DNA from: Raillietiella orientalis
Lineage: Eukaryota
DNA: 64,000 bases
NCBI GenBank assembly: GCA_036172245.1
Contig: JAYWIR010000037.1
Span: 620,001 to 684,000 of the forward strand
Direction: 5' to 3'
In this document: positions 7,838 to 62,375 of the stretch, piece after piece
Position numbering within the stretch: position 1 is the first letter of the stretch
Layout: the number at the start of each line of letters is the position of its first letter
Position numbers and translations under genes: made by a program
The notes under the pieces: generated by a model
What the model saw: the letters and a program-made list of their open reading frames with translations, nothing else
What the model was told of the DNA's origin: nothing
Databases searched by the model: none

Positions 7838-7883
<46 letters not shown>

Positions 7884-23087: not shown

Positions 23088-23144
23088 TAATAAAGTGACG
23101 AGGTATGAGACCCAGTCATGGTCTCATACCTCGTCACTTTATTA
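23088..23144. repeat. Perfect 25-bp inverted repeat, 7-nt loop
   Basis: TAATAAAGTGACGAGGTATGAGACC-cagtcat-GGTCTCATACCTCGTCACTTTATTA. Confidence 0.95.
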
Positions 23145-25244
23145 TGGAAAGATTAGAGTCTAGTTTTTTTTTTGATAGATTTTAGTTTCGAAAACAGCTT
23201 TAACAAGCTCAGCATTAACTGTGACTGAAATTTCCATTCATTTCGTCACTAAAAAGAATCCTACTACTATTAGCCAACAATATTTTTGCTAAAAACAAGA
23301 TGAACCATCGAATTAAACTTTTATATATAAGAAAAATGAATTTTGAGTTATTCAAGACATTGTTCTGAGTTCCCTTTAAAGAATTTTTGCATTGAGTGAC
23401 AGACAAAAAAGACGAGGCTTGAAAAAAGTTTCTTGTGAATTCATTTTTTTTTTTGGAAAACGGCAACAGGATTTTTTTGTCTGAAAAACCGCAAATTGGA
23501 CAACAGGATAAGTTTCAAAATTGCAAGTTAGGGACTGAGAACTGCGCACTTATCATTTTAAAAGCCAGTTTTATAACGCCCTTGTATTTGAAATTGCAGG
23601 ATCAGTTACGGAAGGATAGAGAATTGGGTCTCTTAAAAGATTGCTTTAGGATGTCGTTGCACCAAAATTTTAATAGAAGTTTCAAAGTCCTTGCAATGAG
23701 TAATCATATTACATGTTATTTGTGGCACGAGCATGTAACTCTGGTGATAAAAATCCTTCACCTAGAGCATCAAAAATTTCCAACTCTAATTATGCAAACA
23801 GAATCCCTGATCCAAAGGTAACGCGGAACTGCAAATAAGCCATAACTTGCTTGCCATTTAGTTAATTTAGCATATGTCCGTGGAAATAGAATTCATAAAT
23901 TTTTAGGAATGAATGAAAATGAATTCCATCCGATCCTAAATGAATGAATTTAGGATTGGATGCAATTCTTTCTTTGTTAATTTTCTTGTTAATACTCAGC
24001 AGTTAATGAAACAAGCTTTCCCATATTCCTTTCTGACGTCTTTTTGGAATGATGACTATAAGGAGCGAATTTTTTTTAGGAATACTATTTCATTCTTAAT
24101 TAAAACCATTTTCAGCATTATTTCAACCTTGCTCTTCAAAGTTCAAGCTAATGCATTAAATTGTAGAATATCAATTAATTGAATACATCAGGGAGTGCTC
24201 TGCGGCTTCGAAACATGATATTAGAGTTCGTCATGGGGTTTATATTCAGATTTACGATACTGTGTCATAAAATTGCAATCAGCTGTGTAAAAAAGCAAGT
24301 TTTCAATCGTTGTATACTCTAGCCGGCACTATGAATATTTCACTTGATTTATTTTTGGAACTCTTTTTTATAGATTTCTATCCTTGCTCATTTATACACT
24401 CGACAACCTCAAGAATTCCTGAAAAATTTATGGACACATGACTGTTCTGAGGATCTCAGTTTCTTGCTTATATACTGAGTATTTTAATCTTTTCAGCATT
24501 ACGACTTATGCAAAATTTCTTTTGATTTTTCAAATTGTTGCAAAGTGATTTTTTTTTATGATGTGAACTGAATAGGGGATCATTAGGATGACAGAAATCA
24601 AATTGATGTTATCGTTCAATTGCAACAACACACTTTCCATGTGTAAGCTAATGGGTTTGCTTGTTGTTCTTTGCATCCTGCTGCCTCCATAAATCTCAAA
24701 ATAAAAATCCATACAAATCACATTTAAAGAACCTCATGATACAATCTCACGCTTAATTGAACTCGAACAAGAAGTACACTAAAGTGTTTCATAACATTTC
24801 CTTCTAATGAATATGTTTTCTAGTTGTTTTTCAGCTACATGAATATCCTCGCTTGTTCTTAGTATTCTGATGCACGTCGGTCAAAAACGCTATAAAGAAC
24901 AAATATCATACACCTATGAAGAGGTTGTCTTTTTCTTTGTCCAAATTATCAATTTGTTGATTGTTGCCTTGATTGCTTTCACTATATTTTAAAATGTATT
25001 TTTTTCCTGGAGTTAATGATACCAGTAAGGAAATGTATCGATATGAAATCATTACAGTGAGGGCATATTCGGAAGTCTCCTCGATTTCAAACTGTTTCCA
25101 AGTGCTCACGGTATCGAAGAATACGAACCTTGAATTCTGAGACTTCGGATCTATGCCTAAGAGGGGAAATCAGTCGCAAAATGAAGCATGTTGTAATCTT
25201 CCTACTAGTCATTTTCCTATCGAAATCCAGTTACAGGATCAAGC

Positions 25245-27424: not shown

Positions 27425-29420
27425 AGTTTCAGACCTCTATCCTGAACGCTTTAATCATCTTAAATCAAAGCTTCTAAAGTTTCTCATTTTCTTTTTTTCC
27501 TTTCTTTCTCATCAAGCACGTTGCCATTGCGCGTTGCTTTTCTTTGGAAGCAGACAAGTTTTTTTCGAAACTCTTGTGAATACGTAATGTGAAGCGTACT
27601 TACGTGATGTATATTTCCTCGCGATTGTAATCGAGATGTTTTGCACTTGGACTTCCAAAAAGCATTCCTAAAAGTTTCCAAAGGCATTTTAATGACACTT
27701 AAGTACACTCATGGAAAACATCGATCTAAATCTACTCTTGGAACGTTGCATGAAGTCTCAAGTTAGTGATTGCATCAAAGCGCTAATTTTTCGGCCCTCT
27801 TCTTTTTTTTGCTTCTACTGTAGGAACGCTTTGTCCATCGACTTAGTTTGGTTGGTATGGAAGCCAAATTTTCGGTTCAGTGGTACGAATATTCGTTTCT
27901 TTGAAAACCTCATAAACTTTTATTTCAAACTAGCTTTACAAAGCACTAGGTAGAAACTGAAAAGTTGTTTGCTTCAAGGCCTATTCTACAAACTCTTTAG
28001 GCTGCATCAAAAATGGGCCTCACAGAGCAAGGCGCCACTTGAGATGAACTCTTGATTCTAACTAAACGTAAAAATTTTCGGTTTTACACTAGTTTTAACT
28101 GCATCAAGTTGTCACACTTTTCCTGAGTATCTGCGGAGCACTTTGTATTATGGATATTTTTGACAAGAGGCTATAAATCAAATTAGTATTGACAAGACAA
28201 AAGACTGAAAAACTTCATAATCTTTGCCTTCCGGAAAACCCTGTTCACAGAATATTTTCAATACTTTTGTTTGGATTGTGCATTTTTTCATCTTTTCATC
28301 CATCACTATATCTGTTTCAAACTGTTTCAACACAAACATTTCCTTTCCTCTTAATGCAGATAAACGGAATCCTTGCCAAAGTGTATTATTTTCAGAGCAC
28401 ACTCTAAATCCTTTCATCCTTTCACATGGATTTTTTAAAACAATTTCATGCAGGAATGCTTCAAAAAGTCTGTGAAATATATCTAACTGGAAAGCACACA
28501 TGCATAATGTCTTGTTGATTTTGATGGCTATTAATACCCTTGGGGATAATTCAGATTAAACTTTGAAACCTTTATAACAATTTTTTCTTTTATTTATCAT
28601 ATCATGAACATGTCTACATTGAGCATTTTTTTCTTTCATTTTAGACAATGTAGGATGAGTACATCCATAAGTTTCGCACATAGTGGATCACACTGAATGA
28701 TCTTTACGGGGTAATGTTTTTCAAAGTTTCGAGAAAGATTCCAATTCAAGAGTAAGAAGAGTCTTTTACTGTATGTGCAGCTATGGTAATACACAGATAG
28801 CTGTACATACACGTACTTTCCGTCCAAATTAAGAGAAAACGGACACAGTGGAAACAATGCAGTGCATCTACCAGGATTTCTCACATTCATGATAGGAAAC
28901 TCCATGGTTTTATAACTGCTGACTCAATCTTGAATTCCCTTTAATAACAGCAACTTTGAAAAAACGTTATAGCATAATTTATAGTTTTCTCTGTGTTTAT
29001 TTCGATAAAAGTTTAAGCATTTAAGAAAAATTTGTACATCAATCCACACTAATGATGTCCATAATCATCAAGCAAAAATAATTGAAGACAATCAGTTTTT
29101 CAATCTGAACATTCTTTTGTGATCTAAGAAATTGCCCAAACCCTTGCCCATTTTCTTGAAGTTGAGTTCTTGAATGAAGTAAGGTAACATGCCATTGGTT
29201 TTTCTCTTACTAAATTTTTAGCTAAAGCTTCTTTCTACACTTAAGGATACTTGGGAGAGGTGCTCTCAAAATTGTAGAACAGTGATTAACAGGGAAAAAA
29301 TTACCACAGAAGAAAATGTTAAGTTATTCCTTGAATAAGAAAACATCAGAAGCCATAGTCACTGTACAATGTGACTTAATGTGCTATCAATCAAAAAGAC
29401 ATCACGCCACAGAATGGGGT

Positions 29421-37296: not shown

Positions 37297-38537
37297 TCAC
37301 AGAGAAACACCAATGCAAAATGTTTCTGGCAAATTGATGAGCTTTACTGTAGTGGTATAAAGACGAATGGCATCGTGCATGTTGATTAATTGAGAATGCA
37401 GTTGGTGAATTTTGCAGTCACTATCTAAAAGTAGATATTCTTACATTGATTTGATATTACCTGAAATAACTTCCCGACACTTTTGCCAATTCTGGAGCAA
37501 CAGCTAAGTAGATCACTGTTTGTGCTCCTTTCCAAGGAGTTTTTGTGAAATACCATAAAAATGGAAATATGGACCATTTTAAAAAAGCAGAACGAAAGAG
37601 AACTGTATGGCGTAAAAGCATGGTGTCACGCACTAAACCAGGATCTACATTATTTACTGTTATCTTAGTATCTAATTAAAAATGGCAAATAAACAGAGTC
37701 AAATGTCTAATGCTTACTTTTTAATTTGTTTGCTAGATAGGTTGTCAGCAATGTTAGTGCAAGTTTACTTTGCAGGTAAGCAGCACGTGACTGATAGTTA
37801 AATTCCATATTTATGTCAAACCAACGAATCACACCTGAACGACATGCGAAAGTACTGATGTTAATTATACGCCCTTGATGTGCAGCCTTTAGTTGATCCA
37901 TCAATAGATGAATTAATAAAAATGGGCCTATGAAGAAAAGTGAAAATGTAAGAAAAAACACTTTATTACATTACCAAGGTAGTTTGTTGCTAAGTGCATT
38001 TCAAAACCATCTTCAGTGTATTGATGAGGACAGAGCATTACTCCTGCATTATTAACAAGAACATCCAGATGGTCATATTCTTCAAAAATCAAAGAATACT
38101 TATTAACGTGAAAGTTTCTCACACTTTTCTTGAATTTTTCAACAAAATCCATGATGCTTTCTTTAGAACAAAGATTCAGGACAAGTACTTCTGCTCTTGC
38201 ACTCATCTGATTCAGAACATAATTGGCCTTCTTTTCATCTCGGCATGCTAAAATAACTTTACCACCTGGAAGAAAGATGTACTGACATTCACTCTGCTGG
38301 CAAGAAACCTCTGCGATCTAGTTCTAAGGCTACTTGTTTTCCCAAGCCAGAAGTAGCTCCAGTCACTACAACAATTTTTCCTGGGATTCTGGAATGTGAT
38401 GGACAGTTGGGACCTCCAAAGATAAACCTAAAGGAATCGGATCTTTGAAATTCAATGTAACTTTACTTAAAAAATGTCAAAAAACCGACTAAAACTGCAA
38501 CTATCAATGGCATCCAGCTTTCCAACAACTTGTACAT
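37297..38537 (-). CDS. Retinol dehydrogenase 11/12/13/14-like short-chain dehydrogenase/reductase
   Basis: 7 exons: 38537-38467, 38427-38309, 38265-38125, 38079-37975, 37927-37718, 37671-37461, 37420-37297 (326 aa). Has an N-terminal hydrophobic anchor, the TGATSGLG cofactor motif, LVNNAG, TEDGFEMHLATNYLG and catalytic YLQSK. Confidence 0.95.
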
Positions 38538-38699
38538 GATGCTAGTTAGGGAAAAAGTAAAGTGAAAATAAAATGCAAAATCGTTCAGGAGGCATCAGCC
38601 TGGTGGTAACTTCCCTGAATGCTTAGTGCTTACCACCTATTATGTATATTTAATTAATAAATTTCCTGTTCAGACACCATGAAATGACAATTTATTTTT

Positions 38700-40387
38700 C
38701 TAATCAGTGTCACTACCAAAAATCTCATTTTCATTCTTCTTGTGCTGTTCATCACTATCATCTGCCTGGGAACTGTTGGATGGACTTGATGATTGTGACT
38801 GACTGGAAGACTGAGATTTATGACTTTCAGCATCTGAATTCTCAGAAGAACTGGCTGCCTTCTCACTGCTGCTATCCCTTCCTAAATCTTGTGCACTGAT
38901 TTTGCATATTTAATGCATGCACCTACCTTGATTATCTTCTTTTTGGCCATCACTTCCTTCATCTTCAGCTCTTTCAGCATCTTCTCCTTCTTCGTCTTCA
39001 TCTTCTTCATCCTCTGCAGGTGGTTCCAACTGTTTTTCACGGTACCGATGCATTTTGAATTCCTGTGCTGAGAGTGGCCGATGTCTAACTACTAAACGAG
39101 AATTATTGGGTTGAGCGCCAGGTTTGAGTCTTCTCTTGCTGAGTCTTACTCTTTAATGGAAACAAGTGAGTTTGGCTCTAGCTAACCATTAAAAACTTAC
39201 CTTGTTTCCAATTCATTATAGTATACACCATCAGCTCGGATCACAAAAAAATAATTCTCTTCATAGCCACGTGAAGCTTTATTCTTTACATTCCAGTTGT
39301 ATTCACGAGCCATTTTGTAATCATATTCCTCCTCATCAGCATACTGACAACCCTGTTGTGAATCCCGACGTCTTTTCTCTAAAGTTTCAGAAGTAGGCAG
39401 AAAATATGCCACAAATTGTTCTCCACTTTCATCCATGACACCTCTGATCATAGCTTGAGACATTTCTTCTAGCTGGGCAGGTAAAGAACGTCCTGCAGGA
39501 GCTGGATCTGAGTCAAAAATAACCTGAGCACATGGGTATTTCCATAACTAAAATGGCACATAATCATTAGGAAATAAACAGTTTCAAGTGTCACCTCAAA
39601 ATCTGGAAATATTGGCAATATCTCAACTGGAAAAACGTTTGGTTTTGAATAGTGCTGCCGGATAGTCTTTTGAGCATCTTGAAAGGTCTTCTCAATCGCT
39701 GCAATCTGACTTTCCCTGTCCATGTACAAGGTTTCCTCATTAAACAATTTTTTCACATTGTAGCCCACTTTAGCTTCAACTTTATCAATGACCTGTGGTT
39801 GGAATCTTGTATGCTCAGTGGAAATGTATTCAGTACGCCGTAACCAGGATACACTTTTGGCATGGTGGCGTGACCTACAAATTAGCATAAGATGCTGTTC
39901 TTCAACACTAAATCAACAAACACATTCTGATCACCTTTTGACATCTTGAGGAATCATTATATCCTCTTCCAAGAGTTTTTCATCTGCAGCATCCAATGTT
40001 TGATTGGGGTTCACTGCATAAGTGTCAGGATTGATAAGGTCAATAACAACACCCAAATCATGCTCTGTAAGTAACTCAAATTTGTAATTCCTTTCTAATG
40101 ATGTTGGATTATAACTAACAAATCTATGAATAAACTGTAAAAAGAAAAAAATATTCGACAATACTTCCAACCTATTGCTCTCAAATGGATACACCAAAAA
40201 CTTTGGATCAAAAGGAATGTCAGGAAGAGTGTTACTGTATTTCACTCTACATATTAATTCACATCTGCAAACACATTATTTGATTTCTATCCAGATGATG
40301 TATGCATCACTGTTACCGTTTTTCGCTGGTCTTGCTGGGTCTATGATCTCGATCATTATTAACTCCAGTTTGAATAGTAGGAGCCAT
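38700..40387 (-). CDS. PAF1: RNA polymerase II-associated factor 1
   Basis: 7 exons: 40387-40317, 40264-40172, 40123-39935, 39874-39595, 39547-39201, 39150-38927, 38881-38700 (461 aa). Contains [53 protein letters not shown] and an acidic/Ser tail ending EIFGSDTD*. Confidence 0.98.
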
Positions 40388-41324
40388 GTTAACGAATTGC
40401 AGTGAAGAATTCCAAGATCAACATTTACTCCAGGTGTTTCCTTTCTCTTATGTACTGAGAACACATATGTGAAAACGAAGATTTATAAAAATCTAAAATA
40501 ATGCTCACTTGAAAAATATATAATGCAACGAAACCACAAACATAACTATTGCATAACTGAAGAAAAAAAAAATACTGGCAATCAATGCAAACGAATAATT
40601 TCAAAACTTTAAGTAGTTCCTAATGAGAACAAGTCAATTGAAATTTGCTGACTTTAGTAATTGAATGTAGTGATCAGACCATCAAGGCATTTCAAATTAT
40701 TTCAGTATCCACCATAAATTCTTAACAATGGAAGACTCAGGTTCTCAGTTACAGATCACTGGATAAACACTTTACCGTTGTTTGTTCCACCAATTCTGCA
40801 GAAAGAAAATGAGCAATTTTGGTTTTCCAAACAAAACAGCGATCAAAAATAACCTAAATGAAAGCAATAATCATTAAATTTCATAAATTTCCTCAATTAG
40901 AGGATAGGAAAGAATTGAGCAACGGGCGTTATAGTTCGTTTCCCTAAACGGTTCGAATCATTCAAGTTTTTTAAATGATTCTTCTCCGTAGGCAAGGTAC
41001 CAACAAAAATTATGCTTTACGCAAATTTATGATAGTACTTTCGGATAATCACTGGTCTCTTGAACATCTCCCTCGTTGTTATGGGTTATCAATTATCTGC
41101 CAAGATTCAGAAGAGCACCAGCTATGTGATGCACCCTTCGCATGAATGATTAAACCCTATTCAATGGTCAGAATAAGGATAAGGAAAGTATTCAAATAAT
41201 TCGAAGGACATGATTGGGGTTGTCAATACTATGCCATTTAGGGTCACGGTATAATACAGTTTGTGACAACATAATTCTCATTTCATGATACAATTAAAAG
41301 AATTTGCAATTGGAGCTAAACTTG

Positions 41325-41396
41325 AATCGTGACATGCTTAAAGCAGAGTCGTTCCATCTCCGTTAAACACATGCGACGTTTTGAAGAAGCTTGTCG
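41325..41396 (-). mobile_element. Possible degenerate hAT transposase fragment
   Basis: DKLLQNVACV*RRWNDSALSMSRF resembles the hAT KLxQDVxTRWNSTxxMLxR block. It has an internal stop and no terminal inverted repeats were identified. Confidence 0.3.
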
Positions 41397-43014
41397 GTTC
41401 CTTGGGAACTCTGCGTCAAAACTATTAATAGAGACAAGTTGTTCCGTGGATGTGGTTATCAGCTGAACTTTTGCATGCTACTAAGAAGGGATTAAACTGA
41501 GTCGTCCATAGTAAACGCGACAGAGCAACCCCGGTCATCTTCGTAAATATATCAACCGCAGTAATGTTACTACCCTTTTTTCCTCAAACTGCCACTCATT
41601 CCAATCACTGCACATCTTACTGTTTTATTGTTTTTTTTAAAAAAAAAAAATCAAAGAGAGATCAAGAAAGGCAATCATACAAAAGATCCACTCAAGTAAA
41701 AATAATTCTTATTAAAAACAAAAACTCAAAGTCCTGCGATAGCATTCACAATTCAAAAGTAAAACTAAAGTTACTTAGATAACTCGAACCTTGGACAAAA
41801 TAAAAGTATCCCATATAAAGACGAGGAAATATGAAATTACTGAAACAGAATTAGGTTTAAGGGAGCTAAAGACATCTACTACATCTGGAATTTTTTATAG
41901 TATTGATTGCATTCCACATTTGCTTTAAATTAAAATGTAGTCTTTTGCTTTCTTCGAAACTTGCTTCTTTCTAGATCGCCAAAGTAGCATCCCATCTCCA
42001 AACCTAAGTGTATTTTCGATTGATAAAAGAATTAATTAATTAATTACCATAAATACATATGCTTGAATAGATTGTTTCAGCGTTTTCAAATCTCCTTATT
42101 TACCTTGCTTTCATAAAATGCTTAGTATTTCTTTTTTTTTGCTTTGTGCGTTCTAAAAGCTTTTACCATATTCCAAGATCTTACTAAATGCTCCATAAGG
42201 TTGCGAATTTCTTACACCTTACAGTTCACATGAACTGCAAACTATTTTATTAGATCAGTATCTATTAAAAAAGATTATGATCCATGAGATCTAAGAATCT
42301 ATTACATCCACTGAAGATTCAAGAACTCACTTAAAACTTCACTGTTGTAAATGACTTCCAATTATTTGCCATCACAAAATTTTGCCCATAAGAGAATAGC
42401 AAAAATATTTAGTGACAAATGTACAAATTTGAATCTGCAAATGATAGTATCAGAAACAGAAATGGATGCACTTATGAGATATGTGTGATAATATATTTAA
42501 GTCATACAACTATTTTGTGGAATTCACGCGATTTTTATTCTATTATAGCTTTTATTAGCATTGCATATTTTACTAATTAGAGTAGCATTCACTTTCATTA
42601 CTGTATATTTGAATTTCGAAGTTTTAAAATTCTAAAACGATTCAGACTCTTACTTGCATTCTTAAAACTATGAGAGCCAAATAGCTTTTGCAACAGTTCT
42701 AACTTTTTTTTCATTCATTTTACTGGATTTTACTGCGTATGTAGTGTGTGTTAGAAATGTGTGTTGTAGTCACATTCAAAAAATTTCAAATAAAGTGCTT
42801 CTTGATATGAACAAATGCGTGACAGACTTGTAACCTAATTGCTTTTTCATTGTAATCAGTTCTTCTGCAATTTTGTAGTAAATGATCTCATAGCAGTCCT
42901 TAGTGAAATATCTGCCTTTCTTAACTCGCAAATGCATTCCATTAGATTAGGGATGTTTGGTACTGTTTGCTTCAGTGCGTTGAGTGGTTGAATTAAACGT
43001 GAGTTACATGTGCA

Positions 43015-46000
43015 ATGGGCAGAGCTGGTATGTTACATAGCTTCCTAACTTAATTGTGAATACTATGAAGTCCACATATGCGTATATATAATGTATAGTA
43101 TTTTTGCTTCCAGCAATTTACGACATTCAAGAGCGAACTGAAACGCTTATAGTTTTTTTTCATTTCTAACTTGAATGATTGGATAATCATTCATTAGGTT
43201 ACTGATTTCAGCATGGAACATTTGTATTCAGTTGCGAGGCATAATAATTGTTTTGAATATTAAAGATAAATAAAAATCCCACTACTTCTGATTTCTAATT
43301 ATTTATGCTGCTTCGATAGTTTTGTTGCTATTTATTTCGTTTATACGAAATGTATATTTTATCTTCTGTGGCTTTGTGCATAGTTCAGTTCCAAAAAGAT
43401 AGCAATTTAAGTATTAGCCTTTGTTTTCTCTTGCAGCAATCTGAAAGATTTTCATCGATTTGTTGTATAAGCATTAATATTCGCTTCCTTCTCATGGTGT
43501 TAATTGCTTCCATGTCGAAAACTGGTTTTACTAAGTTGTATGTGGTTATTTCCCATTTGTGTTCTGTTAAGAAAAAAATATGTTTTAATACGTTTAAAAT
43601 AAGCATCAATGGTGCAGGCATGTTTGCAACATGTGCAATGAATTTTTTTTAGCCTTTTTTTTTTTTTGATGCTTTTTTGTTTTTATGATTACTGGTTAAG
43701 TTGATTTGATTTTTCGATTTTTCTTCCGTTTCTCTTGTTGGATTCTTTTCTTTGTACCCATCGATATTTTACAGATATCTCATATTAGAATAAGAAATCA
43801 GGAAACAGTCATATGCTTTGCACAAAGTAATGCATGTGTACTTGCAGATCAATCAGTTAATGAATTAACCTAATTACATAGAATTAACAAACAATCCAAA
43901 AGAATAAATAAGAACTCAAAATTATGATATAATATTGAGTTTAGATTCATGAATGTTGGAGATTCTTGAGTTTCTAAGTTTTCTTTCATAGTGTGTGTTG
44001 TTGTCTCCATTTGATTGCTTGGTACAATTCACAATTTCAAGAAATTTTAGCATATGGTTGTTCATTTACTTCTGGGTACGGAATTTGAAATTATGCAAAA
44101 TTTCTACCCAAAATGTATTTAATTGTTTGCTTCTTTTACTAACTGTAACTGATGAGAAGCTACTTTCCTTCCCATCAGTTACAAATACGCTAAGATTTTT
44201 AATTCCTTCTTCTCAGAATTGCCATTTAATTATTTGTCAGTGTCATTTTTATTCATGCAAATCTCCAAAATATCTGTTCAGAATTCAGTGTTTATTTCAA
44301 CAGATCTTGCCTAAAACTCATGTGGATTCCATGACTAATTCTGTTCTGATCAAATCTGAAACTCTTGCAGTTTTGAGAAGTGAATTATTCAGTTTTCATT
44401 TCGGATTCTTCACCATGAGGATTTTAATAGTGTTGTATTGCTATATTTTTAGTTTTACTGCAATAATTATTTTTTACATTTGAAACAGTTATTGAGAGAA
44501 AATATTTTCTTCCATTAGTATTTTGTTTCTTAGTGCAATATACAACAAATGTTTTTTCTAAGTTTTTGTTTCAGTGTGCTTTGCATACTACATTATTTTT
44601 TCGCCTTATGTTTATTGCATGTTTTGTATGATAATTTTGTATCCATTATTATTTATTTTTTTTGTCACTGTAGAGCATCACAAACTGCTCTCTCTTAAGT
44701 TCATTACTTGAATTTCAGGTTTTACTGGAGGAGGACGAGGGTTTGGAAGTAGAGGAGGTGGATTTAGAGGAGGTGGAAGAGGTGGGAGAGGGGGCTCTTT
44801 CAGATCTCCTGGCGGATTTCGTGGTGGTCGGGGTGGTAATCGTAACAGTGGAAGATTTGGAGGACGAGGAGCTGGGAGAGGTATCTAGTTTTCTGTTTTT
44901 CTGGTTTGATACCAAAGAATAAGATATGAAACTTGCTCAGAGAATTCATAAAATCACGAAGTGAACTTAATCGCATTGCAAAAGTTTCTTAGTTCATACC
45001 AACTATAAAGCATAACTCCATCTCTAGGGAAGAAAATTTTGTTACTCCTGATTCGTTTTTTATTCATAAATTTGTAATCTGAATTACATTGACTGCAACC
45101 ATCAGATCTACCCTGTCTTTGTTTTCTATTTTTTTTCATAGAGAAAACAGTGGTTGAGAATTTGCAAGAATTCATATTTATGTCTGTTAATAAATCGTTA
45201 TAGTGTATTGATTTTAAGTTTTAGATAAAAGTAAAAGTTATAGTTGTGTTCATTGATACATATGAAAATAAATTGATGAAAACAATGAAATCGGCAAAAA
45301 TAATGTTTCAAAAGAAAAGAAATTCCAAAGGGGATTTAATATAAATGGTTGCATTTTATTAAGAGGATCAAAAAATTTTCGAAGTACAAAATGCTTTTTT
45401 ACTTATGTGTGTGTGTGTGTGTGTTTTTTTTACAAAGCCCAAATTTTTCACAAGCTTACTTTCTTATGTTTAAGTTATAAGTGCGTTAGTAATGCGAAAC
45501 CCTTATTTGCTCTTGTGCTACTTTGACCATGTGAGATTAGATGTTTTGCTTGTTAATTTTCCATCTTCACATGAATCCAAGTACATAGTTTGTGAAATAA
45601 TTGCAATTCATGTCAATCAATGCTGAAAGTGTTCAGTTGCTTTTTATTGAATTCAGCACAACAGTTAGTGTGTTTCCTAGCTGCAATTGCTATCATATCT
45701 GGAAATATGCTTGTAGTTGATTCTTTATGATAATTTCCAATGGTGCATATTCGAGAAAAACGTTGTGGCTGTAGATATTTTAGGATACCTTATGAAAAAT
45801 GCAGTGTATGTCCACTTTGGTACTGATTTTAGCTGCAGGTCTGTTGTCAAGTAGTTAGTTGGTGTTTTGAGTTTTGCAAAAAATAAAAAATTGATGGAGT
45901 GTGTTTTAAAGTAAATAAAAATCTCAATATTTCTCCTATCCTCAAATTTAGGAGGTTTCAAAGGAGGCTCCAATGTAGTTATTGAGCCACATCGCCATCC

Positions 46001-46776
46001 TGGAGTATTTATTGCCAAAGGAAAGGAACATGCTTTAGTTACAAAAAATCTAGTTACTGGAGATAGTGTCTATGGAGAAAAGCGCATATCAGTAGAGGTA
46101 AGCATTTATTTTGTGATTAAAACACCACTTTCTCACAGGATGAAAATGGTAAAGTTGAATACAGAGTTTGGAATCCATTTCGTTCAAAATTGGCAGCAGC
46201 AATATTGGGTGGTGTAGATCAAATACATATGGCTCCGGGAAGCAAAGTGCTTTATTTGGGAGCTGCTTCAGGTACTACAGTCTCACATGTATCAGACATT
46301 TTAGGGCCTGTAAGTAAAAAATATTTTATCTTGGCTTCGTTTCTTGTTAGCTGTAGAATGGTCTTGTGTATGCTGTTGAATTTTCCCATCGATCTGGTAG
46401 AGATTTACTGAACTGTGCTAAAAAACGAACGAACATCATCCCTATTATAGAAGATGCACGACATCCTCACAAATATCGCATGCTGGTGTCTATGGTGGAT
46501 ACTATTTTTGCTGATGTCGCCCAGCCTGATCAGGCACGCATTGTTGCCTTGAATGCACATCATTTCCTTAAGAATGGAGGTCACTTTGTTATATCAATCA
46601 AAGCAAACTGCATTGACTCCACTGCTGAGCCTGAAGCTGTTTTTGCTGGAGAAGTTCGAAAAATGCAAAGTGAGAAAATGAAACCACAGGAACAGATAAC
46701 TTTAGAGCCTTATGAAAGAGATCATGCTGTTGTTGTAGGTGTCTATAGACCACCACCAAAAAATAAAACAATATAA
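43015..46776 (+). CDS. FBL: Fibrillarin, box C/D snoRNP rRNA 2'-O-methyltransferase
   Basis: 5 exons: 43015-43027 (MGRA), 44719-44880 (RGG/GAR domain), 45952-46097, 46139-46309, 46357-46776 (303 aa). Contains [28 protein letters not shown] and DVAQPDQ. The 13-nt first exon is inferred from phase and its GTATGT donor. Confidence 0.98.
44143..44183 (+). repeat. 16-bp hairpin in fibrillarin intron 1 matching RPA2 exon 6
   Basis: Arms 44144-44159 and 44168-44183 pair at 15/16 positions. 44143-44164 matches 47102-47123 at 21/22 nt. Confidence 0.9.
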
Positions 46777-46801
46777 AAGATTGATATTTTTGTATTTTAT
46801 T
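46762..46801. terminator. Back-to-back polyadenylation signals of fibrillarin (+) and RPA2 (-)
   Basis: AATAAA on + at 46762-46767 (inside the last fibrillarin codons) and AATAAA on - at 46801-46796 (abutting the RPA2 stop codon). Confidence 0.6.
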
Positions 46802-48303
46802 TTAACTATCTGTAGCTTTAAAATAGCTATCATCAATGGTGGAGTAAATGTGCCCTTCTCCTGTCAAAAACTCCAGAATATTGCTGAAAAAAATATGAAT
46901 TATCCTTTAAATAATTAACATACTTGATCTCATCAGCATGCAGTCGTCCATGGAGCATGCTGACTATTGTACTTTGGTGAGCTCCACGCTCATCTTTGCT
47001 AGCCTGAAACCCATGAGTTCCCAGTGTTAACATATAATTCAATCTTACACTGATAATGTTGTAAACCAATTGCTGATTCGTAGTGAGGCTGTCTGTCACT
47101 CCTGTAACTGATGGGAAGCTACTATTCATCCTCATACTCGCATTTGGTGCATTCGTTGCTGCCTCTGCTCTCTAAAACTATTGTCATTAATCTTGAAGAA
47201 GCTTCATCAGACAGACCTCGCACTGTTGTAGCTGTTTCAGTTTGAGTTGCGCATAAATGACTTCCAAAATGTGCAAAGAAATCTCATTTAAGTCACTAAT
47301 TGGCATAATCTTGAAGATCATGACATATTTTTTATCTTGCTGTGATCTGAGACTACCAATCACACGGCAGTAGGTATTTTCCATTACTGGTTGCCTGTTT
47401 AATTCATCCTAAGCCACTGATATGTTCATTTGCCTCTATTAATTCATCGTACCATTTCACTTTCATTCCAATATACAGCTTCGATTAATCCTGATGTATC
47501 ATCAATAATGTAAGTGGTTTTTGTACTAGTTTGCTCAACCTTTCTTATTAATCCCATTATTTCGATCTAATTTCTCAGTGAAACTTTGGAACTACAAAAA
47601 CAACTTACAATGTGTGCTTCTGTACCAGACACTTTCAAGACATCTTCAGTAACAGAGAATATATGTTGAATGCTTACAGGAACCAAATTTTGAGCCTTTC
47701 TTGACTAGAAATACATGTGAATGCTTTAACAAAGAAACATGCTAAAGTCACAAATTCGATTTCAATTGAAATTTCGGGAGAAATTTGTTTTATGCGATAC
47801 AAGGTTTTTTGTTTTTCATGATAACCACCTTTTTAAAGCCATCCGGATCATTAGGAGAGAAAGTACTGTTCATAAAGCCACCACTCGTCTTCTGCCCAAT
47901 ATTACCGGCGCCGAAACTTCCAAATCCTTAAAGAAAGACAATCAGACAACATAGAGCTACCAAAGGCTAGTAAAAGCACATACATTATTGAGAACTAAAT
48001 CAACGTTCAAAGAATAAATAAACTGAATTGTGGTTAAACTAACTTCATTGTAATTCGCCACTTGCGGCATATGCATTCTTTCAAAATCACTGCAAATTGT
48101 TTGCATTTGCTATGATCGTATCGAGTGTGATCGTTCCCAAATCTGAGTATGCATCCGCATTTATTTGCAAATTCCCCATTAAAACACTGGTTTCAGTGCA
48201 CACTCTGAAACTATTCCCATTTCATGGCCGAAATTACTCATTTCCTTCAAGCCCAGATAAAAAGGGCTCCAAGTATCATTTACTTACCGTCGTTATTCCA
48301 CAT
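46802..48303 (-). CDS. RPA2: Replication protein A 32 kDa subunit
   Basis: 8 exons: 48303-48288, 47926-47829, 47704-47609, 47566-47453, 47408-47217, 47171-47049, 47003-46924, 46883-46802 (266 aa). Begins MWNNDGFG..GGFM, has an OB fold (TYIIDDTSGLIEA, YCRVIGSLRS, DLNEISLHILEVI) and a winged-helix tail LEFLTGEGHIYSTIDDSYFKATDS*. Confidence 0.97.
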
Positions 48304-51300
48304 GTTGGATTACTTGGAAAATCGCGCCATTACATGCACTCCCTGCCTGCTCGAAAGCGGAGGCGCGCCTTTTAACCCATAACACGCAGCCCACGGAAAA
48401 CACCAACTCGAGTTTCGAATAAAGGCTCCAGATCGGATATCTATGAAATACTATTTTTGCAACTTCAGCTGGAATGTAAATTGTCAGTACGGAAAATTCG
48501 AAAATGAATTCACAAGACTATTAGTAGCGAACAAATAGTTGATTTTTGATGTTGTAATTCATTCTGAAAACAAAAGTTTTATCTTTTGTCCTGCAAAATG
48601 ATCACTTTCCATGTTTGCACATTTGCTTTTTTTAAATTAGAAAACGATGCTCTCCAGCATTGTATTCTATTGTTTTTTGTCTCAAAACAAGTCTTTTTAT
48701 AGAAATGACCTTATTTTACTAATGTTTCTAAAACCTTGGTCGTACTATATATACAACATCTGAAATTGCTTCATACACGAATAATCTGAGCCCAATATCA
48801 TACAAACCATTCTCTAAAAATGCAGATACATTTCTCAGTGCTCACAGTTGCATTTTAGATGTAGTTCATTAACCCAGAGTATCCTCTGCAAAGAATTTCC
48901 TTATTGAAGTTATTGATTCCATGAAGAGCGATTTCGCTAAATCAGAATCAAATACATGTTCCGAGTTTAAAATGAAAGGAAAATTTGTAACTATATCTGA
49001 GGCAACGGGACAACCTAAATTTGGAAAACATCGAGTATTAGTTGCTTTGTATTGTTTAATCATGTATTTGGTAATTTTATCATGACTCTAAAACCTCTGC
49101 ATTCGTTCAGATGGAGAGGAACAAATTATTATTCAGCTATGAAATAGAACTGATAAGAAAGCTTCCTCATTCCATATTTTCTTCACTCCAGAATATTCTC
49201 AACATGAGTGTTCGAATAATGTGAATTCGAATACTGTTGCACTCATTTGATGTGTTCTGTGTTACAGTTTAAGTAATCGTTTTCAGTTGAATATAAGTGC
49301 TTCACTGACCCTAGTTAGATTGAGCTCACTAAAGACCTTTTTGAATGATGCAATAGTATTCGATTCTGACGGCGTTTCTTCTCTCCAGTAAGGAAGAAAC
49401 GCAATGAAACGATTAAGAATCACTCTGTGTTAGCTAATTATCGCCGTTTATTGATAGTACAACACCAACAAATCATTGAATTATTTTAATCGTTCGGCAA
49501 TTGTAAGTTCAAGATGAAGGATCCTCTGTGACCCTATTCCAGTCTACTTTCATTTCGCAATTCTGAATTCCCAAACTTCCAGGCTTCACGATAAAGAAAC
49601 TTTAAATTAAGTACCTGCAAAAACAACAGAAGCAAGGAAATTCATAATTATATCTCATCTGATCTGTTCTTTGCATGAAGAGGAATCCAGTACAGCATAA
49701 TAGTTGGCAATGTTAGGCCGGAAAGAAGTGACTGCAAAAGAATTTGCAAATCATTCGATTCTTCAAAAGGAAAATATTAACAGTAAAAGGACAAAATTAC
49801 TTTTTGCTTCGATTCACGTAGTTCGCTGCATACTAAATATCTTCACGCCACTGGAAAAAAAAAGTTTTGAAATGGCTAAATTCAGTTCAGAAAATGTCCC
49901 ATGAAAGAATAAATAAAAGAATTAAAAAGAATACACTTTGTCTGACAAGACAATAAATACTCATTTCTAAAGCATGAACACGAATACCGTGAAAGTTAAA
50001 ATGTTACTTCTAAACAACTGTTTCATCAATTCAGAGAATATACTATGATCTTAACGTGCACATTGTCCTTTATGAGGCATGTTTTCAAAAAAAAGAAGTA
50101 TTTTGGTAGTGAAACGAAATAAATACCGGTGACTATGGCTGGTAATAAAGATGAGTCTCACAAGCAATCATCAATTGGTGATAAAAGAAGTGCCTGTGAT
50201 TTCCATAGATCGTTCCATACAACTAAAGAATCTCATACAGAATTGTTAGGCATTATAGATGAGAGTTTTTATTTATATGTGAAAGGAAATGTGAAAGGAA
50301 ATTGTATTTCAGTACACTCCTTACATTCGGCCTCCAGTTTTCTCTGTCTGTTCACGAATATCACCCCTACAAAGCCAGTAATAGCTAGGGCCTTCTTCAT
50401 CATATGGTATTTTCCTGTAAGTTTTAAGCATGTCATTGACTACGCGTCTAAGTCTACCTTACAGTAAAAACCAATAAGCATCGCTCAAAGAGTAGCATGC
50501 TTTTTTATGTAAGTTGTAAACAGAGACAGCTAAAAACGTTTCAATGGAGCACGCTGATTTTACGATGGCTAAGTACACTTACTCTACAATTCCTTGCTTA
50601 AATTGTATGTGCATTCTTCACTTTTAACATTAGATCGGGAATGCAAACATTTGTCGCTCGATAGGCCATGATAAATAGTCGTATTAGGGAAAAGTGTCAG
50701 TCTTCTATTTGGTTCCTGAAATTTGAAAATGCATTGGCTAAAAATTGCAGCTGAACCATCAAGTTACATGCCCCTTAAGAAGAGAAAAGGACATAAAAAA
50801 CGTATTTGTACAACAGATCCAGGGTTTTTCGCTTTAGAATTTCAAGGAAGGGGAATATTTAATGACTTCTTTTAGGGCAGGAAATCTAAACAAATTTCTA
50901 AGTATTAATGCTTTTATATTTTCAAGAGCGCTTTCGGTGAAATGGTATTCATTATAGGTCTTTTATACTGTAGGGAATGATTGCCTACTCCATTGCCTAC
51001 TGCCTTAAGGATTATGAAAATAGCTCTTTTCAGTAGGGAAAATAGAAAGCTTAAAATTTTATAATCCAACATATAACTACGGCTGCTGGAATACGAGTAT
51101 GGATTCGAATGCAACTGTTGTGGGTGCAGCTAGTCATTAAATACATTCGCTCACCCAGTGGAGTGTGTCAATTTTGGTAATGGAACCTAAGCGTTTACGA
51201 ACTTGCACTTTGTGAAGTCGTAAACTTTAAGTCTAACTTGTCCAATAACCCCTAAAACACCGATTTAAAGAATTTTGTTGCAGATACTTCGATATCCGTG

Positions 51301-51648
51301 CGTGACTCAAGGACGCTGCAATGTAAACTGTAACTTGTAGTTAATTTAGTTAAATATCGTGGTAAAATTGTCGAATCGATCGTCTCAGATGCTGGTTTTA
51401 GAGCATCAAGTTCATATGTGTGTACCAAAGAGTGGAATTTCTTTGTATGACAACGGTGTACTTACGAATGTGTTTGTGTGTGTGTTTTTGTCATCACTAA
51501 TTTCCATGTTAGTATATGTGGTTATTTTGGCCAGTAGTTCAAAATGTAAACGGTGTAAATTAAAAATAATGATAAGTACATTTCATAGAGCAGAGCTCGT
51601 TCTTTACATTTTAGTTGTACCCTTAATGATCCAGTTAAAAAACAAAAA

Positions 51649-53317
51649 ATGATTGTAGTGCGTAATTCGTGTTTGTTGCTTCCACGGATTACATGTAATG
51701 CCATTTTGCGACCCCTAAGGTGTCACTCTGTGAAAGATCAACGTGAGGTAGTTTATCGGCGCATATGGTTGTCGAACTTATATACTTAAAATCTTTGTAG
51801 GATGAAAGCGATAAACTTTACAAATTGATAGAGGTAGAAGTTAGAGGTCATGATCGTGCAGTACTAGACAGTTATGAGTGGTTTGCAACTACAGCAGCCA
51901 AGCATTTGGACATTAAAGTTGCAAAAGTGTAAGCCTCATTATACTTCTGTTATATCTCGATTATATGGCCTTAATTGTATTGATGTTGACAAAGCAAGTA
52001 CGTGAATAAAATGTATGTGAATTCAATTTGTTTAAGTACTCATAAAATGGTGAATAACTCAAGAATATGGAAAAAGTATCTAATAGTTTGTCTGAAACAG
52101 TACATTTGTTTCAATGAATTCTCCTAAAAGATTCAAGAAAGAAAGATTGAAGGAATATGTAAAGTGAAGAATATTCCAAGATTATAGTTGCTAATTGTTT
52201 GGTACTATTAAAAACCTACATTCAGATTTTTAAAATTTATTGTTTTCCTTCTTTTCTGAAATTGTGTTATTATTTTTAAGTAATTTAGTTAGTTTTCCTT
52301 GTTGCCAGTAAGGATTAGTAATGATTGAAATGGGCAAAGTGGAAATCTGAATAATAATATACTGCTTGAAGTTTATTAAGTTAGAATGTGGTTTTGTTCT
52401 ACCTGTTTTGTTTTCCTACCTGTATCTTAATTGGCATTAGTGTTTTGGTTAGTCTGAAAAAAGATCTTTTATATGTGTAGTAACAGAGTATTTTATTAAT
52501 TCCACATAAGTTCAGATGTGCAGTTTTATTTTGTCTTTCAAAATATCTCAGAAATTGAACATTATTATTTGCATTGATATGTCATTTGTGCATTTATGTG
52601 TTCTGAGGAGCGAAAATTCAGAATATAATTTCCTAAGCAGAATTGATGTTTTTGTTTTGAATAGATTCCCTAAGAATTATTATTCTTGGTCATAAATCAG
52701 TCAAAAGAAAATCAGTACATTAGCAGGCTGTGTTCACTGAAATGGAAAGATTCAAGCAAGAGTATCAAGGCTTGTAAATTATTGGTAGTGTAATTTGTGC
52801 ATTATAATTTAAAGGGTTTTGAAAACTTGGTACCTTTGTAGTTCAAGTTAGATATACCAATGAACATGTTGCGTGTACTTGTTAAGAAAGCATCAACACT
52901 GAAATGTATTATTGGTCTTCATATTATTGCTTTTCTTTTATTAAAAGTGTGTTGTTTGTCATTCTAAGAAGCATATTAATTAACATTTGAGAGCTGAAAG
53001 GATTTATTCTGATTTTAGGTGGGAGCCACCAAAGCATTTGTTGCGTAAAGATTTTCTTCGTAGTGCCCATGTTCATAAGAAGCATTTTGTACAATACGAA
53101 TTTCGTACATATTTCCGTATTATTCAGTTGGTCAGACTTACAGGCAGTACAGCTGACACTTACCTGGAGTACATTCAACGAAATTTGCCTGTAGGAGTGG
53201 CCATGAAGGTGAATAAGGTGAAACAATTGTGCTTTTGTTGAAATGGAATGCTTCCCTATACATCTTCCATAGCATGAAATCCAGATGTTGCCAGAACATA
53301 TTTGTCAAGGGCGTTAG
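51649..53317 (+). CDS. MRPS10: Mitochondrial small-subunit ribosomal protein uS10m
   Basis: 4 exons: 51649-51747, 51801-51928, 53019-53217, 53273-53317 (156 aa). Has an Arg-rich presequence-like N-terminus, [38 protein letters not shown] and [25 protein letters not shown]. Confidence 0.96.
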
Positions 53318-61600: not shown

Positions 61601-62375
61601 ATATTTTGCTTAAAAACTATCCATGTTCTACTTAAAAGAATTCTAATATTAATGAGACTTACATGAGGATATCCTACATCTAAAGGCCATTATTACAAAA
61701 TTTTGCATTCAAGATTTGTAAATCATTTTTCGATTGTGAGATATATCGTTAATTATTGAAAACTTAAAATAATATCTTGTATTCAAAAAATCTCAGCAAA
61801 GATGAATCCATATCAAATGTATTTTGAATGTTAAGTATCAACATTTAAAATGCATGATATGGTGTTTATGCATGATGTCTTTCATTACAATTAATATAAA
61901 TGCATCAAAATGTAATATATATATTACATTTTAATAATTTGTATATCTCTATATTATATTTTAATAATTAATATGTGTATATATGGAATAAATTTATACA
62001 TACATATAATAGAGCGAGTTTTGTCCCTACCTTTCTATATAGACAAAAGACGTTACTTTATGAGAAATACTTATTTCATTTACTGTCATCGGATGCCATT
62101 CAGTGAAATAAGTCGCGTTAAATCCAAACGGTCATTTGCTTGACATAATAAGTTAAGCAGCGAGCAATATTGCGTTCCATGTGTTACGCTGATAGCTGAT
62201 TTTGCACGTGGTTGAGAGTAGGTAGTGCAAATTTTTTTTGTCCCATCCATGATTGGAATGAATTATATAAAAACAATTTAACATGCCACCTGGACATTGA
62301 GTAGAATCAAAGTTTTATAGAGTTTCAGGGAGCTGGGTCTCACCCAATTCATAGAAGCATAACTCTTCATTAAGG

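Follow-up and report, generated by a model that had tools for sequence, protein, structure and literature searches.

The locus lies in a window of 64,000 nucleotides (64 kb), which is the whole stretch of DNA analysed. On the + strand, a homology-based model predicts a fibrillarin gene. Its putative exon 1 (43015..43027), placed by homology only, includes the ATG, codons for M-G-R-A and the first base of a G codon, and is followed by the donor GTATGT; a possible alternative ATG lies at 43512. Predicted intron 1 (43028..44718, 1,691 nt) leads to exon 2 (44719..44880, + strand), which encodes the glycine-arginine-rich region. The best fibrillarin matches are 91–93% identical and span cnidarians, insects, echinoderms and fish. 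Fibrillarin is too conserved to assign the host to a group. A DDB1 exon reaches at most 66–68% identity, to ticks, cockroach and termites. We take the host to be a bilaterian invertebrate, without close relatives in the collection searched.

The neighbouring gene, on the - strand, is RPA2, identified by the similarity of one of its exons to human RPA32 (E 1.4e-11). The adjacent exon (47049..47171, - strand, 41 codons), a putative exon 6 according to the original prediction, has an AG on one side (47172-47173) and a GT on the other (47047-47048) and encodes the linker joining the RPA2 OB fold and the C-terminal domain. It includes a 22-nt segment (47102..47123, - strand) which specifies S-S-F-P-S-V-T plus one nucleotide. 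An exhaustive search recovered 431 RPA2 relatives at E<=0.001, the best with only 57% identity, so that the linker can be compared only with distant proteins; a word-index search with a 64-aa RPA2 exon retrieved no relatives. In the alignment with eight distant RPA2 proteins, the NQQLVYNIIS of the exon corresponds to a block conserved in all eight, while S-S-F of the 22-nt segment coincides with a motif of the linker (N-S and then L, F or M) present in seven of the eight.

Within fibrillarin intron 1, 535 nt upstream of the predicted acceptor, is a hairpin (44144..44183, + strand) composed of a stem (44144-44159 and 44168-44183) and a loop (44160-44167, CTACTTTC). Its 5′ arm and most of its loop belong to a direct copy (44143..44164, + strand) which, as the original prediction had noted, is identical to 47102-47123 at 21 of 22 positions, the one mismatch being A44155 against G47114. 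The 3′ arm (44168..44183, + strand) had been described as an exact 16-nt copy of RPA2 sense sequence, and it is indeed the reverse complement of 47103-47118, with 100% complementarity. Because the template overlaps a linker motif common to distant RPA2 proteins, the RPA2 exon is, on this sequence evidence, the template and the intron site the copy.

The stem, announced as 16 bp, does extend over 16 positions but comprises 15 pairs plus one A·C mismatch, with arms 94% complementary and 8 nt apart. The mismatch is at stem position 12 (+ strand), where A44155, flanked by G on both its 5′ and 3′ sides, faces C44172. This is the sole difference from the source, and two-against-one parsimony would place the substitution, G to A, in the 5′ arm. 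If transcribed from the + strand, 44143-44164 is antisense to the RPA2 mRNA, as had been claimed: the minus-strand frame across 47102-47123 reads NSSFPSVTG (ORF 46833-47171). With C44143 on one side and CTACT in the loop, the direct copy reaches 6 nt past the stem. It therefore cannot have been made from the 3′ arm, whereas snap-back on the direct copy could have produced that arm.

The + strand RNA folds at -20.7 kcal/mol (z -5.5), a value equalled by 0 of 200 shuffles, and the hairpin is kept when folded within its 201-nt context. That fold includes no basal stem, with 13 and 3 unpaired nt beside the hairpin stem. The loop, CUACUUUC, is 8 nt long with pyrimidines at 7 of 8 positions. A 163-codon open frame (43992-44483) runs across the hairpin; a Pfam search with it returned no family, and the T-rich composition of the strand probably explains it.

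Uniqueness of the paired copies

Across the 64-kb window, a search for the 22-mer allowing up to 3 mismatches gave a single other match, 47102-47123 on the + strand, with 1 mismatch. Two matches for the 22-mer occurred in 0 of 100 shuffles, and the two sites form the sole direct 22-mer pair with at most one mismatch in the window that is not of low complexity. The remainder of intron 1 and the hairpin flanks have no match in the window except poly-T runs. Longer alignments can be drawn but were not relied on: a gapped local alignment extends the 22-mer to 49 columns across T/C-rich flanks, and an ungapped one extends the match to 30 nt at 87%. A slightly longer copy is an option if one slipped base is allowed (CTACT-TTC against CTACTATTC).

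Could the resemblance be due to chance? Taken alone, its components are not extreme. The 21/22 match is expected at 0.03 pairs per dinucleotide-shuffled window (5 of 200 shuffles had at least one), in agreement with the earlier estimate of ~0.02 per window, and the 16-nt exact inverted match is inside the shuffle range. In addition, a scan of metagenomes with the 21-mer returned one match, an exact 22-mer of the intron variant, on an unrelated contig (L001). There it sits in a 246-aa ORF without a Pfam family, in DNA of 45% GC; the contig shares no further similarity with the window and has no inverted arm, and, given the very large size of the collection, we treat the match as chance level. 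A hairpin of at least 15 pairs combined with an arm-plus-loop match elsewhere is, however, expected only ~2e-7 times per window, or ~0.05 times over ~250,000 windows, even before an exonic source within 3 kb is demanded. Chance is therefore effectively refuted as an explanation and is hardly credible for this locus, and the proposal of a templated insertion with fold-back from a gene 3 kb away stands far beyond it.

A second alternative is that both sites derive from a dispersed repeat or from the end of a mobile element, for instance the hairpin at a Helitron 3′ end or the terminal repeat of a MITE. The window is indeed rich in hairpins: five of at least 14 pairs were found, against a mean of 0.27 over 279 shuffles. 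In addition, CTAA occurs 6 nt past the intronic hairpin and loosely resembles a Helitron end. By our estimate, however, AT-rich DNA should by chance alone offer a CTRR-type end within ~10 nt, and the other hairpins of the window share no sequence with that at 44144-44183. The original prediction had itself allowed that the 22-mer might be a dispersed repeat, which is not what the 64-kb window holds: only one other copy is present. With two copies only in 64 kb, flanks unmatched elsewhere in the window and an RPA2 copy lying in frame in a coding exon on a motif common to distant RPA2 proteins, Helitron 3′ and MITE ends were rejected, and an origin of this type is very improbable.

A chimeric or mis-polished stretch of the assembly might also be suspected, since long homopolymers fill window bases 3,000-16,000 and may indicate a noisy assembly. 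Apart from this, however, both genes are intact, as is the intron on either side of the hairpin, and we know of no assembly error that makes a 22-nt direct and a 16-nt inverted copy from 3 kb away, plus a substitution. We consider such an artefact very unlikely, if slightly less so than a mobile element end.

A probable templated insertion with snap-back

Intron 1 contains two copies of the same coding-exon stretch, in opposite orientations and with a single difference of defined polarity. We consider it very likely that they represent a young compound templated insertion, without function, that arose in the germ line through template switching or the error-prone repair of a break. In this mechanism, fibrillarin intron 1 would carry a 3′ end left free to copy ~22 nt (perhaps 25-26 nt, given a 1-nt slip) of the RPA2 exon located 2,959 nt downstream. 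The RPA2 transcript could be an alternative template to the exon DNA; as the copy is confined to one exon, DNA and RNA templates are indistinguishable. Folding back on itself, the new end would next use the freshly made strand as a template for 16 nt of reverse copy (snap-back); the extended end and the opposite side of the break would then be joined. One event would in this way yield the exon stretch twice, in direct and in inverted orientation, and thus a hairpin, in which a subsequent G-to-A change in the 5′ arm would create the A·C mismatch. An origin of the 3′ arm by snap-back from the 5′ arm requires the mismatch to be later than the insertion, and this single later change would mark the insertion as young; if the mismatch is instead a polymerase error, the two arms would have been copied separately. 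Polymerase theta would be the leading candidate enzyme, a replicative template switch being indistinguishable from it.

Several properties expected of templated insertion scars are observed. Near-identity to sequence elsewhere is found for both of its parts (21/22 direct, 16/16 inverted), and the reverse-complement part adjoins its own putative template, 8 nt away and 15/16 complementary, as in snap-back. In view of the excess of hairpins in the window, mutation that generates inverted repeats seems to be at work in this genome. Templated scars should have at least 1 nt of priming identity where they join, often together with a deletion. In the filled allele alone, no microhomology is visible on either side, the flank having A where the template has C; an ACT common to flank and template lies 2 nt further out from the junction.

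Scars of this type have been described in C. elegans, where POLQ generates templated inserts through reiterated priming, extension and dissociation, and where snap-back gives reverse-complement inserts; the error rate is about 1 in 30 bp (PMC5068794). Pol theta is also reported to switch between templated extension in cis (snap-back) and in trans (PMC4912351). Like the scars of polymerase-theta end joining (TMEJ), the patch examined here is a short insert from existing sequence with direct and reverse-complement parts (PMC5068794, PMC4912351), and its one error in ~40 nt is compatible with the TMEJ rate of ~1/30 (PMC5068794). It differs in the distance of the template. For about 85% of the C. 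elegans POLQ inserts reported, priming took place no more than 10 bp from the break, and the template at 2,959 nt falls outside this majority class, whose templates lie a few to tens of bp from the break; the patch would thus correspond to the rare inserts, ~3%, which map to distant sites (PMC5068794). At 38-41 nt, it is also longer than the ~10 bp TMEJ average.

The class 2 templated sequence insertion polymorphisms (TSIPs) described in human resemble the fibrillarin-intron patch in that a distant transcribed region, possibly through an RNA intermediate, templates a patch that fills a double-strand break, and in that both are without target-site duplication and without poly(A) (PMC5110952). 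In contrast to those TSIPs, the patch is much shorter and includes a fold-back (PMC5110952). A third comparison is with template-switch hairpins, in which a complete intronic sense stem is likewise produced in one event and mismatches are introduced by later point mutations (PMC10710096). Those hairpins copy adjacent sequence, whereas here both arms come from a gene 3 kb away, and the stems of the miRNA candidates among them are given as 30-55 bases, compared with 16 here (PMC10710096).

Comparison with small-RNA precursors

The original prediction saw in the hairpin the possible birth of a small-RNA regulator. In such a scenario, the intronic hairpin would be freed by a nuclease and loaded, in the manner of miR-451, onto a slicing Argonaute, and it would guide cleavage or repression of RPA2. 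Several properties are consistent with this. The 5′ arm plus loop is 21/22 complementary to the coding exon of the neighbouring gene, that is, antisense to the RPA2 mRNA, and the guide-like strand starts in the 5′ arm and runs into the loop, as in miR-451 (PMC5737282). Engineered saiRNAs also have a 16-18-bp stem together with a loop that is complementary to their target, and overall the hairpin resembles miR-451, AgoshRNAs and saiRNAs in its ~40-nt size, stem length (16-18 bp) and high target complementarity (PMC5737282, PMC4633630). An intronic position in sense orientation would provide free transcription, as proposed for template-switch-born miRNAs (PMC10710096). Finally, when a hypothetical minus-strand transcript is folded, the mismatch becomes G·U, giving a stem of 17 pairs including the G·U and a purine-rich loop.

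The geometry of the hairpin argues against such a function. In the rules set out for miR-451-type Dicer-independent hairpins, the stem has 17-18 bp (active at 16-20 bp; G·U allowed), and for AgoshRNAs stems below 17 bp are listed as inactive, with an optimum of 17-18 bp, and mismatches as not tolerated (PMC5737282); the present stem covers 16 positions, one of them an internal A·C. AgoshRNA loops are described as having 5 nt or less, pyrimidine-rich ones being harmful to activity (PMC5737282), while the loop here has 8 nt and is pyrimidine-rich. The hairpin differs from miR-451, AgoshRNAs and saiRNAs also in that it has no defined ends: miR-451 needs Drosha, and the flanks here are unpaired in the 201-nt fold, with no basal stem. 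Moreover, miR-451 is a vertebrate gene and the host is a bilaterian invertebrate, and in Drosophila miR-451-type precursors have been reported mostly to stall after slicing (PMC3919586). Since most of the design rules published for Dicer-independent short hairpins are broken (PMC5737282), the proposal of a nascent regulator gains nothing from this comparison.

Other routes fare no better. Canonical pri-miRNAs are described as favouring a stem of ~35 bp with an apical loop of at least 10 nt (PMC10710096), against the 16-position stem, 8-nt loop and unpaired flanks observed here. The predicted splice sites are 1.1 kb and 0.5 kb away, which rules out a mirtron. No described miRNA family was recognized: Rfam gave no match at E<=1 over 38000-52000, nor at gathering score across the window. 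In plant MIRNA genes and hpRNAs, the arms measure tens to hundreds of base pairs and undergo dicing. The 16-position duplex is too short to provide a 21-nt duplex by dicing, although, as in young plant MIRNA genes and Drosophila hpRNAs, both arms are homologous to the would-be target (PMC1790633, PMC3237417, PMC10317233).

The original prediction further proposed that the mismatched A44155 lies in a context favoured by ADAR and that editing would perfect the duplexes. The argument from context holds in part, A·C being a preferred edit-site mismatch; the neighbouring base does not fit, since a 5′ G is ranked as the least favoured 5′ neighbour (PMC11417349). Editing at 44155, or derivation from the minus strand with its perfect stem, may play a part in the most elaborate version, in which a ~40-nt miR-451-like hairpin born in one repair step is co-transcribed with fibrillarin, loaded onto Argonaute and dampens RPA2. 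We regard a target-derived small-RNA gene in general as a very doubtful explanation, and this elaborate version as more doubtful still.

With its 16-position stem, its A·C mismatch, no basal stem and no Rfam match, the locus most probably represents an inert scar of DNA repair rather than a new regulatory RNA, the fallback that the original prediction had offered and the best-supported reading. As modelled, the hairpin appears too short and too imperfect for activity to be expected, and its worth is therefore that of an illustration and not of a new regulator. As such, the scar provides a clean natural germ-line example of an in-trans copy from a neighbouring gene combined with snap-back. It illustrates how a single repair event can plant a ready-made hairpin, complementary to a nearby gene, in a transcribed intron. 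Hairpins of this kind, whether as template-switch-born miRNAs or as target-derived inverted duplications, are the proposed raw material of new small-RNA genes.

In a genome so rich in hairpins, this instance invites a genome-wide tally of like events. Exact-repeat counts gave no sign of many further trans-templated patches in the 64-kb window. With a minimum length of 14 nt, 34 direct and 34 inverted exact matches were counted, compared with 23±5 and 29±6 after shuffling, a weak excess of short exact repeats.

Gene context of the duplicated stretch

The two genes concerned are convergent. On the forward strand, two exon ORFs match the Pfam fibrillarin family PF01269 (E 6e-62 for the longer), and the Gly-Arg-rich exon, which starts at 44719 (+) in phase 1, is preceded by a TTTCAG acceptor and contains no in-frame ATG. 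The best upstream candidate for a first exon (43015-43027, +) carries an ATG, encodes M-G-R-A and the first base of G, and ends at a GTATGT donor. This model is favoured because of the N-terminus it provides, MGRAGF, which can be compared with the commonest first six residues of the 120 fibrillarins listed, MRPGFS (35), MGRPGF (13) and MGKPGF (12); intron 1 is then predicted to extend from 43028 to 44718. With an alternative ATG at 43512, the hairpin described below would still be intronic. This ATG is in frame and 43512-43532 reads M-S-K-T-G-F-T. The final 9 nt of this segment, GGTTTTACT (43524-43532), are an exact repeat of 44718-44726, which includes the acceptor G and the start of fibrillarin exon 2. 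The repeat could be due to chance (estimated at ~0.01), represent an alternative first exon or be a trace of the origin of intron 1.

On the reverse strand, an OB-fold exon of RPA2 (47408-47217, 64 aa) matches human RPA32 (E 1.4e-11) and is followed by an exon with AG/GT borders (47171-47049) encoding ...MNSSFPSVTGVTDSL...NQQLVYNIIS. The fibrillarin and RPA2 stop codons (46774-46776 and 46802-46804 respectively) are separated by 25 nt. AATAAA immediately follows the RPA2 TAA and also occurs within the last fibrillarin codons, so that the 3' ends must abut or overlap, and any transcript reading through from one gene would run antisense to its neighbour. The closest proteins in the collections share at most 68% identity with DDB1 and 57% with RPA2, and the source of the DNA was accordingly placed as a bilaterian invertebrate lacking close relatives there.

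A hairpin with a match in a neighbouring exon

When up to three mismatches are allowed, the first 22 nt of the intronic patch (44143-44164) recur just once elsewhere in the window, in the same orientation within the RPA2 exon (47102-47123), where the only difference is G47114 in place of A44155. The 3' arm (44168-44183) corresponds exactly to 47103-47118 in reverse complement. Both the 22-mer match and the exact 16-nt inverted copy had been part of the original observation and were confirmed by sequence reading and by search. Of the 16 positions in the stem (44144-44159 with 44168-44183), 15 are paired, and the arms enclose a loop of 8 nt. The hairpin has a folding energy of -20.7 kcal/mol as + strand RNA (z -5.5; none of 200 shuffles was equally good), -27.9 kcal/mol as - strand RNA, where the mismatch becomes a G·U pair, and -11.1 kcal/mol as DNA (z -7.2). 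A stop-free frame of 163 codons (43992-44483, +) spans the hairpin and gives SFPSVT in the RPA2 frame; it matched no Pfam family and is probably due to the richness of this strand in T.

Taken alone, a direct match of 21/22 is not rare given the length and base composition of the window. Dinucleotide-shuffled windows contain 0.03 such non-low-complexity pairs on average (at least one in 5 of 200 shuffles), near the ~0.02 initially proposed, and the exact 16-nt inverted match is by itself within the shuffle range. Once low-complexity sequence is set aside, the real window contains no direct 22-mer pair with one mismatch or fewer other than the exon/intron pair, and all four inverted 22-mer pairs are local palindromes. 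Hairpins with 15 or more pairs, no more than one mismatch and a 3-40-nt loop occur at 0.075 per shuffled window, and the chance that the arm and loop of such a hairpin match elsewhere at 21/22 is 2.6e-6, giving a joint expectation of 2e-7 per window. Provided that the assembly is correct, the hairpin with its outside match is real. A scan of metagenome contigs yielded one exact copy of the intron variant of the 22-mer, at 3000-3021 of contig L001, in unrelated DNA of 45% GC and within an ORF of 246 aa that matches no Pfam family. L001 includes no inverted arm and no further similarity to the window, and the match is regarded as chance-level.

Origin and possible function of the intronic copy

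The RPA2 exon is the original and the intronic site the copy, as judged from the linker motif, the two orientations present in the intron and the position of the odd base. RPA2 exon 6 was aligned with 8 of 150 listed relatives, chosen as full-length sequences ranking among the first 17. MNSSF aligns with a linker motif, N-S with L, F or M as the next residue, that is present in 7/8 relatives and whose S-S-F is encoded within the 22-mer; NQQLVYNIIS aligns with a block conserved in all eight. The intron carries two copies of the stretch, one in each orientation, and the exon only one. Where the copies differ, the 5' arm alone has A; the exon has G and the 3' arm has the complementary C, indicating that the substitution arose in the 5' arm.

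These direct and inverted copies, together with the joint statistics, support the templated fold-back insertion that had been proposed. The direct copy overruns the stem at both ends (C44143 on one side, CTACT of the loop on the other) and, being longer than the stem, could not have been templated by the 3' arm. The 3' arm could derive from the direct copy. In the simplest history, the 3' end of a broken intron would be extended on the RPA2 exon or its transcript, DNA and RNA templates being inseparable because the copied stretch lies within one exon. The new strand would be released after ~22 nt or, if CTACT-TTC is read against template CTACTATTC, after 25-26 nt with one slipped base. It would then snap back and copy 16 nt of itself before its end was joined to the far side of the break.

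These steps match the repertoire described for polymerase theta, which alternates between non-templated extension and templated extension in cis (snap-back) and in trans (PMC4912351). For C. elegans, PMC5068794 attributes templated inserts to reiterated priming, extension and dissociation, and reverse-complement inserts to snap-back, with distant sites supplying ~3% of mappable inserts and an error rate of ~1 in 30 bp. Human class 2 templated-sequence insertions, described in PMC5110952 as break-repair patches from distant, transcribed regions, provide a further parallel for the RPA2-derived patch. In contrast to typical polymerase theta inserts, most of which have a template within 10 bp, the template here is 2,959 nt away and, unlike a textbook insertion, there is no visible junction microhomology in the allele at hand. 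A replicative template switch may instead have made the insertion. If the 3' arm did snap back from the 5' arm, as in the break-repair history, the G-to-A change came later and the scar would be young but not brand new. The patch is a fresh example of an already known kind of mutation, and its interest is chiefly illustrative unless expression data were to contradict an inert reading.

The hairpin had also been suggested to represent the birth of a target-derived small-RNA regulator. This received no support, stem and loop geometry disfavour it, and we consider a functional small RNA very improbable. Judging from the predicted fold, the canonical miRNA route would be closed: the stem has 16 positions, whereas primary miRNAs prefer ~35 bp and an apical loop of 10 nt or longer (quoted in PMC10710096), and in a 201-nt fold the flanks are unpaired over 13 nt and 3 nt beside the stem. 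The hairpin was unmatched in Rfam at E<=1 and at the gathering score and, being distant from both splice sites, is not a mirtron. A miR-451-type route would by analogy be the closest fit, yet most of its rules are failed. The overall shape resembles that of miR-451-type hairpins and of the engineered saiRNAs (stem 16-18 bp, loop complementary to the target; PMC4633630), and the guide-like strand occupies the required 5' arm. However, according to PMC5737282, AgoshRNAs have an optimum stem of 17-18 bp and lose all activity below 17 bp; their stems permit no mismatches, whereas position 12 of the present stem is an A·C, and their loops should not exceed 5 nt or be pyrimidine-rich, compared with 8 nt including 7 pyrimidines here. 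A fourth count against this route is that the ends of pre-miR-451 are still made by Drosha (also in PMC5737282).

The favoured ADAR context proposed for A44155 holds for the A·C mismatch and the 3' G and fails for the 5' G. A 16-bp duplex is short for ADAR. According to PMC11417349, A·C is among the mismatches that ADARs prefer, G on the 3' side of the edited base is favourable, and G is the least favoured 5' neighbour.

Other hairpins and unusual sequence in the window

The window includes five non-low-complexity hairpins with 14 or more pairs; the average over 279 shuffles was 0.27, and no shuffle reached five. Three of them have 15 or more pairs (shuffle mean 0.075). Judging from this surplus, inverted-repeat-forming mutation would seem frequent in this genome. 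The surplus is consistent with the intronic hairpin being a scar but leaves the trans-templated part unexplained.

Two are perfect. The first, 19189-19248 (28 bp, loop 4 nt, -43.6 kcal/mol), gave only sub-threshold matches to plant miRNA families in Rfam. TTGTAAA occurs 5 nt ahead of it (19177-19183) and immediately after it (19249-19255), and its right flank TGTAAACTGATG (19250-19261) is similar to TGTAACTGATG of the intronic patch, a resemblance which is probably coincidence. The second, 23088-23144 (25 bp, loop 7 nt, -45.6 kcal/mol), has no second copy within the window and no Rfam match. Two others, 23927-23962 and 28770-28811, have 14 pairs and one mismatch each. No convincing third copy of any of these four hairpins was found in the window, two having isolated near-matches of a single 16-mer, and their Rfam matches, far below threshold, look like generic hairpin matches. 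There are also two AT-rich perfect palindromes, at 15940-15961 (22 nt) and 61907-61932 (26 nt). Finally, the region ~3000-16500 is dense in homopolymers (T, A or G runs of at least 20 nt) and CA repeats, with GC up to 42%, reflecting either unusual low-complexity DNA or poor polishing of the assembly.
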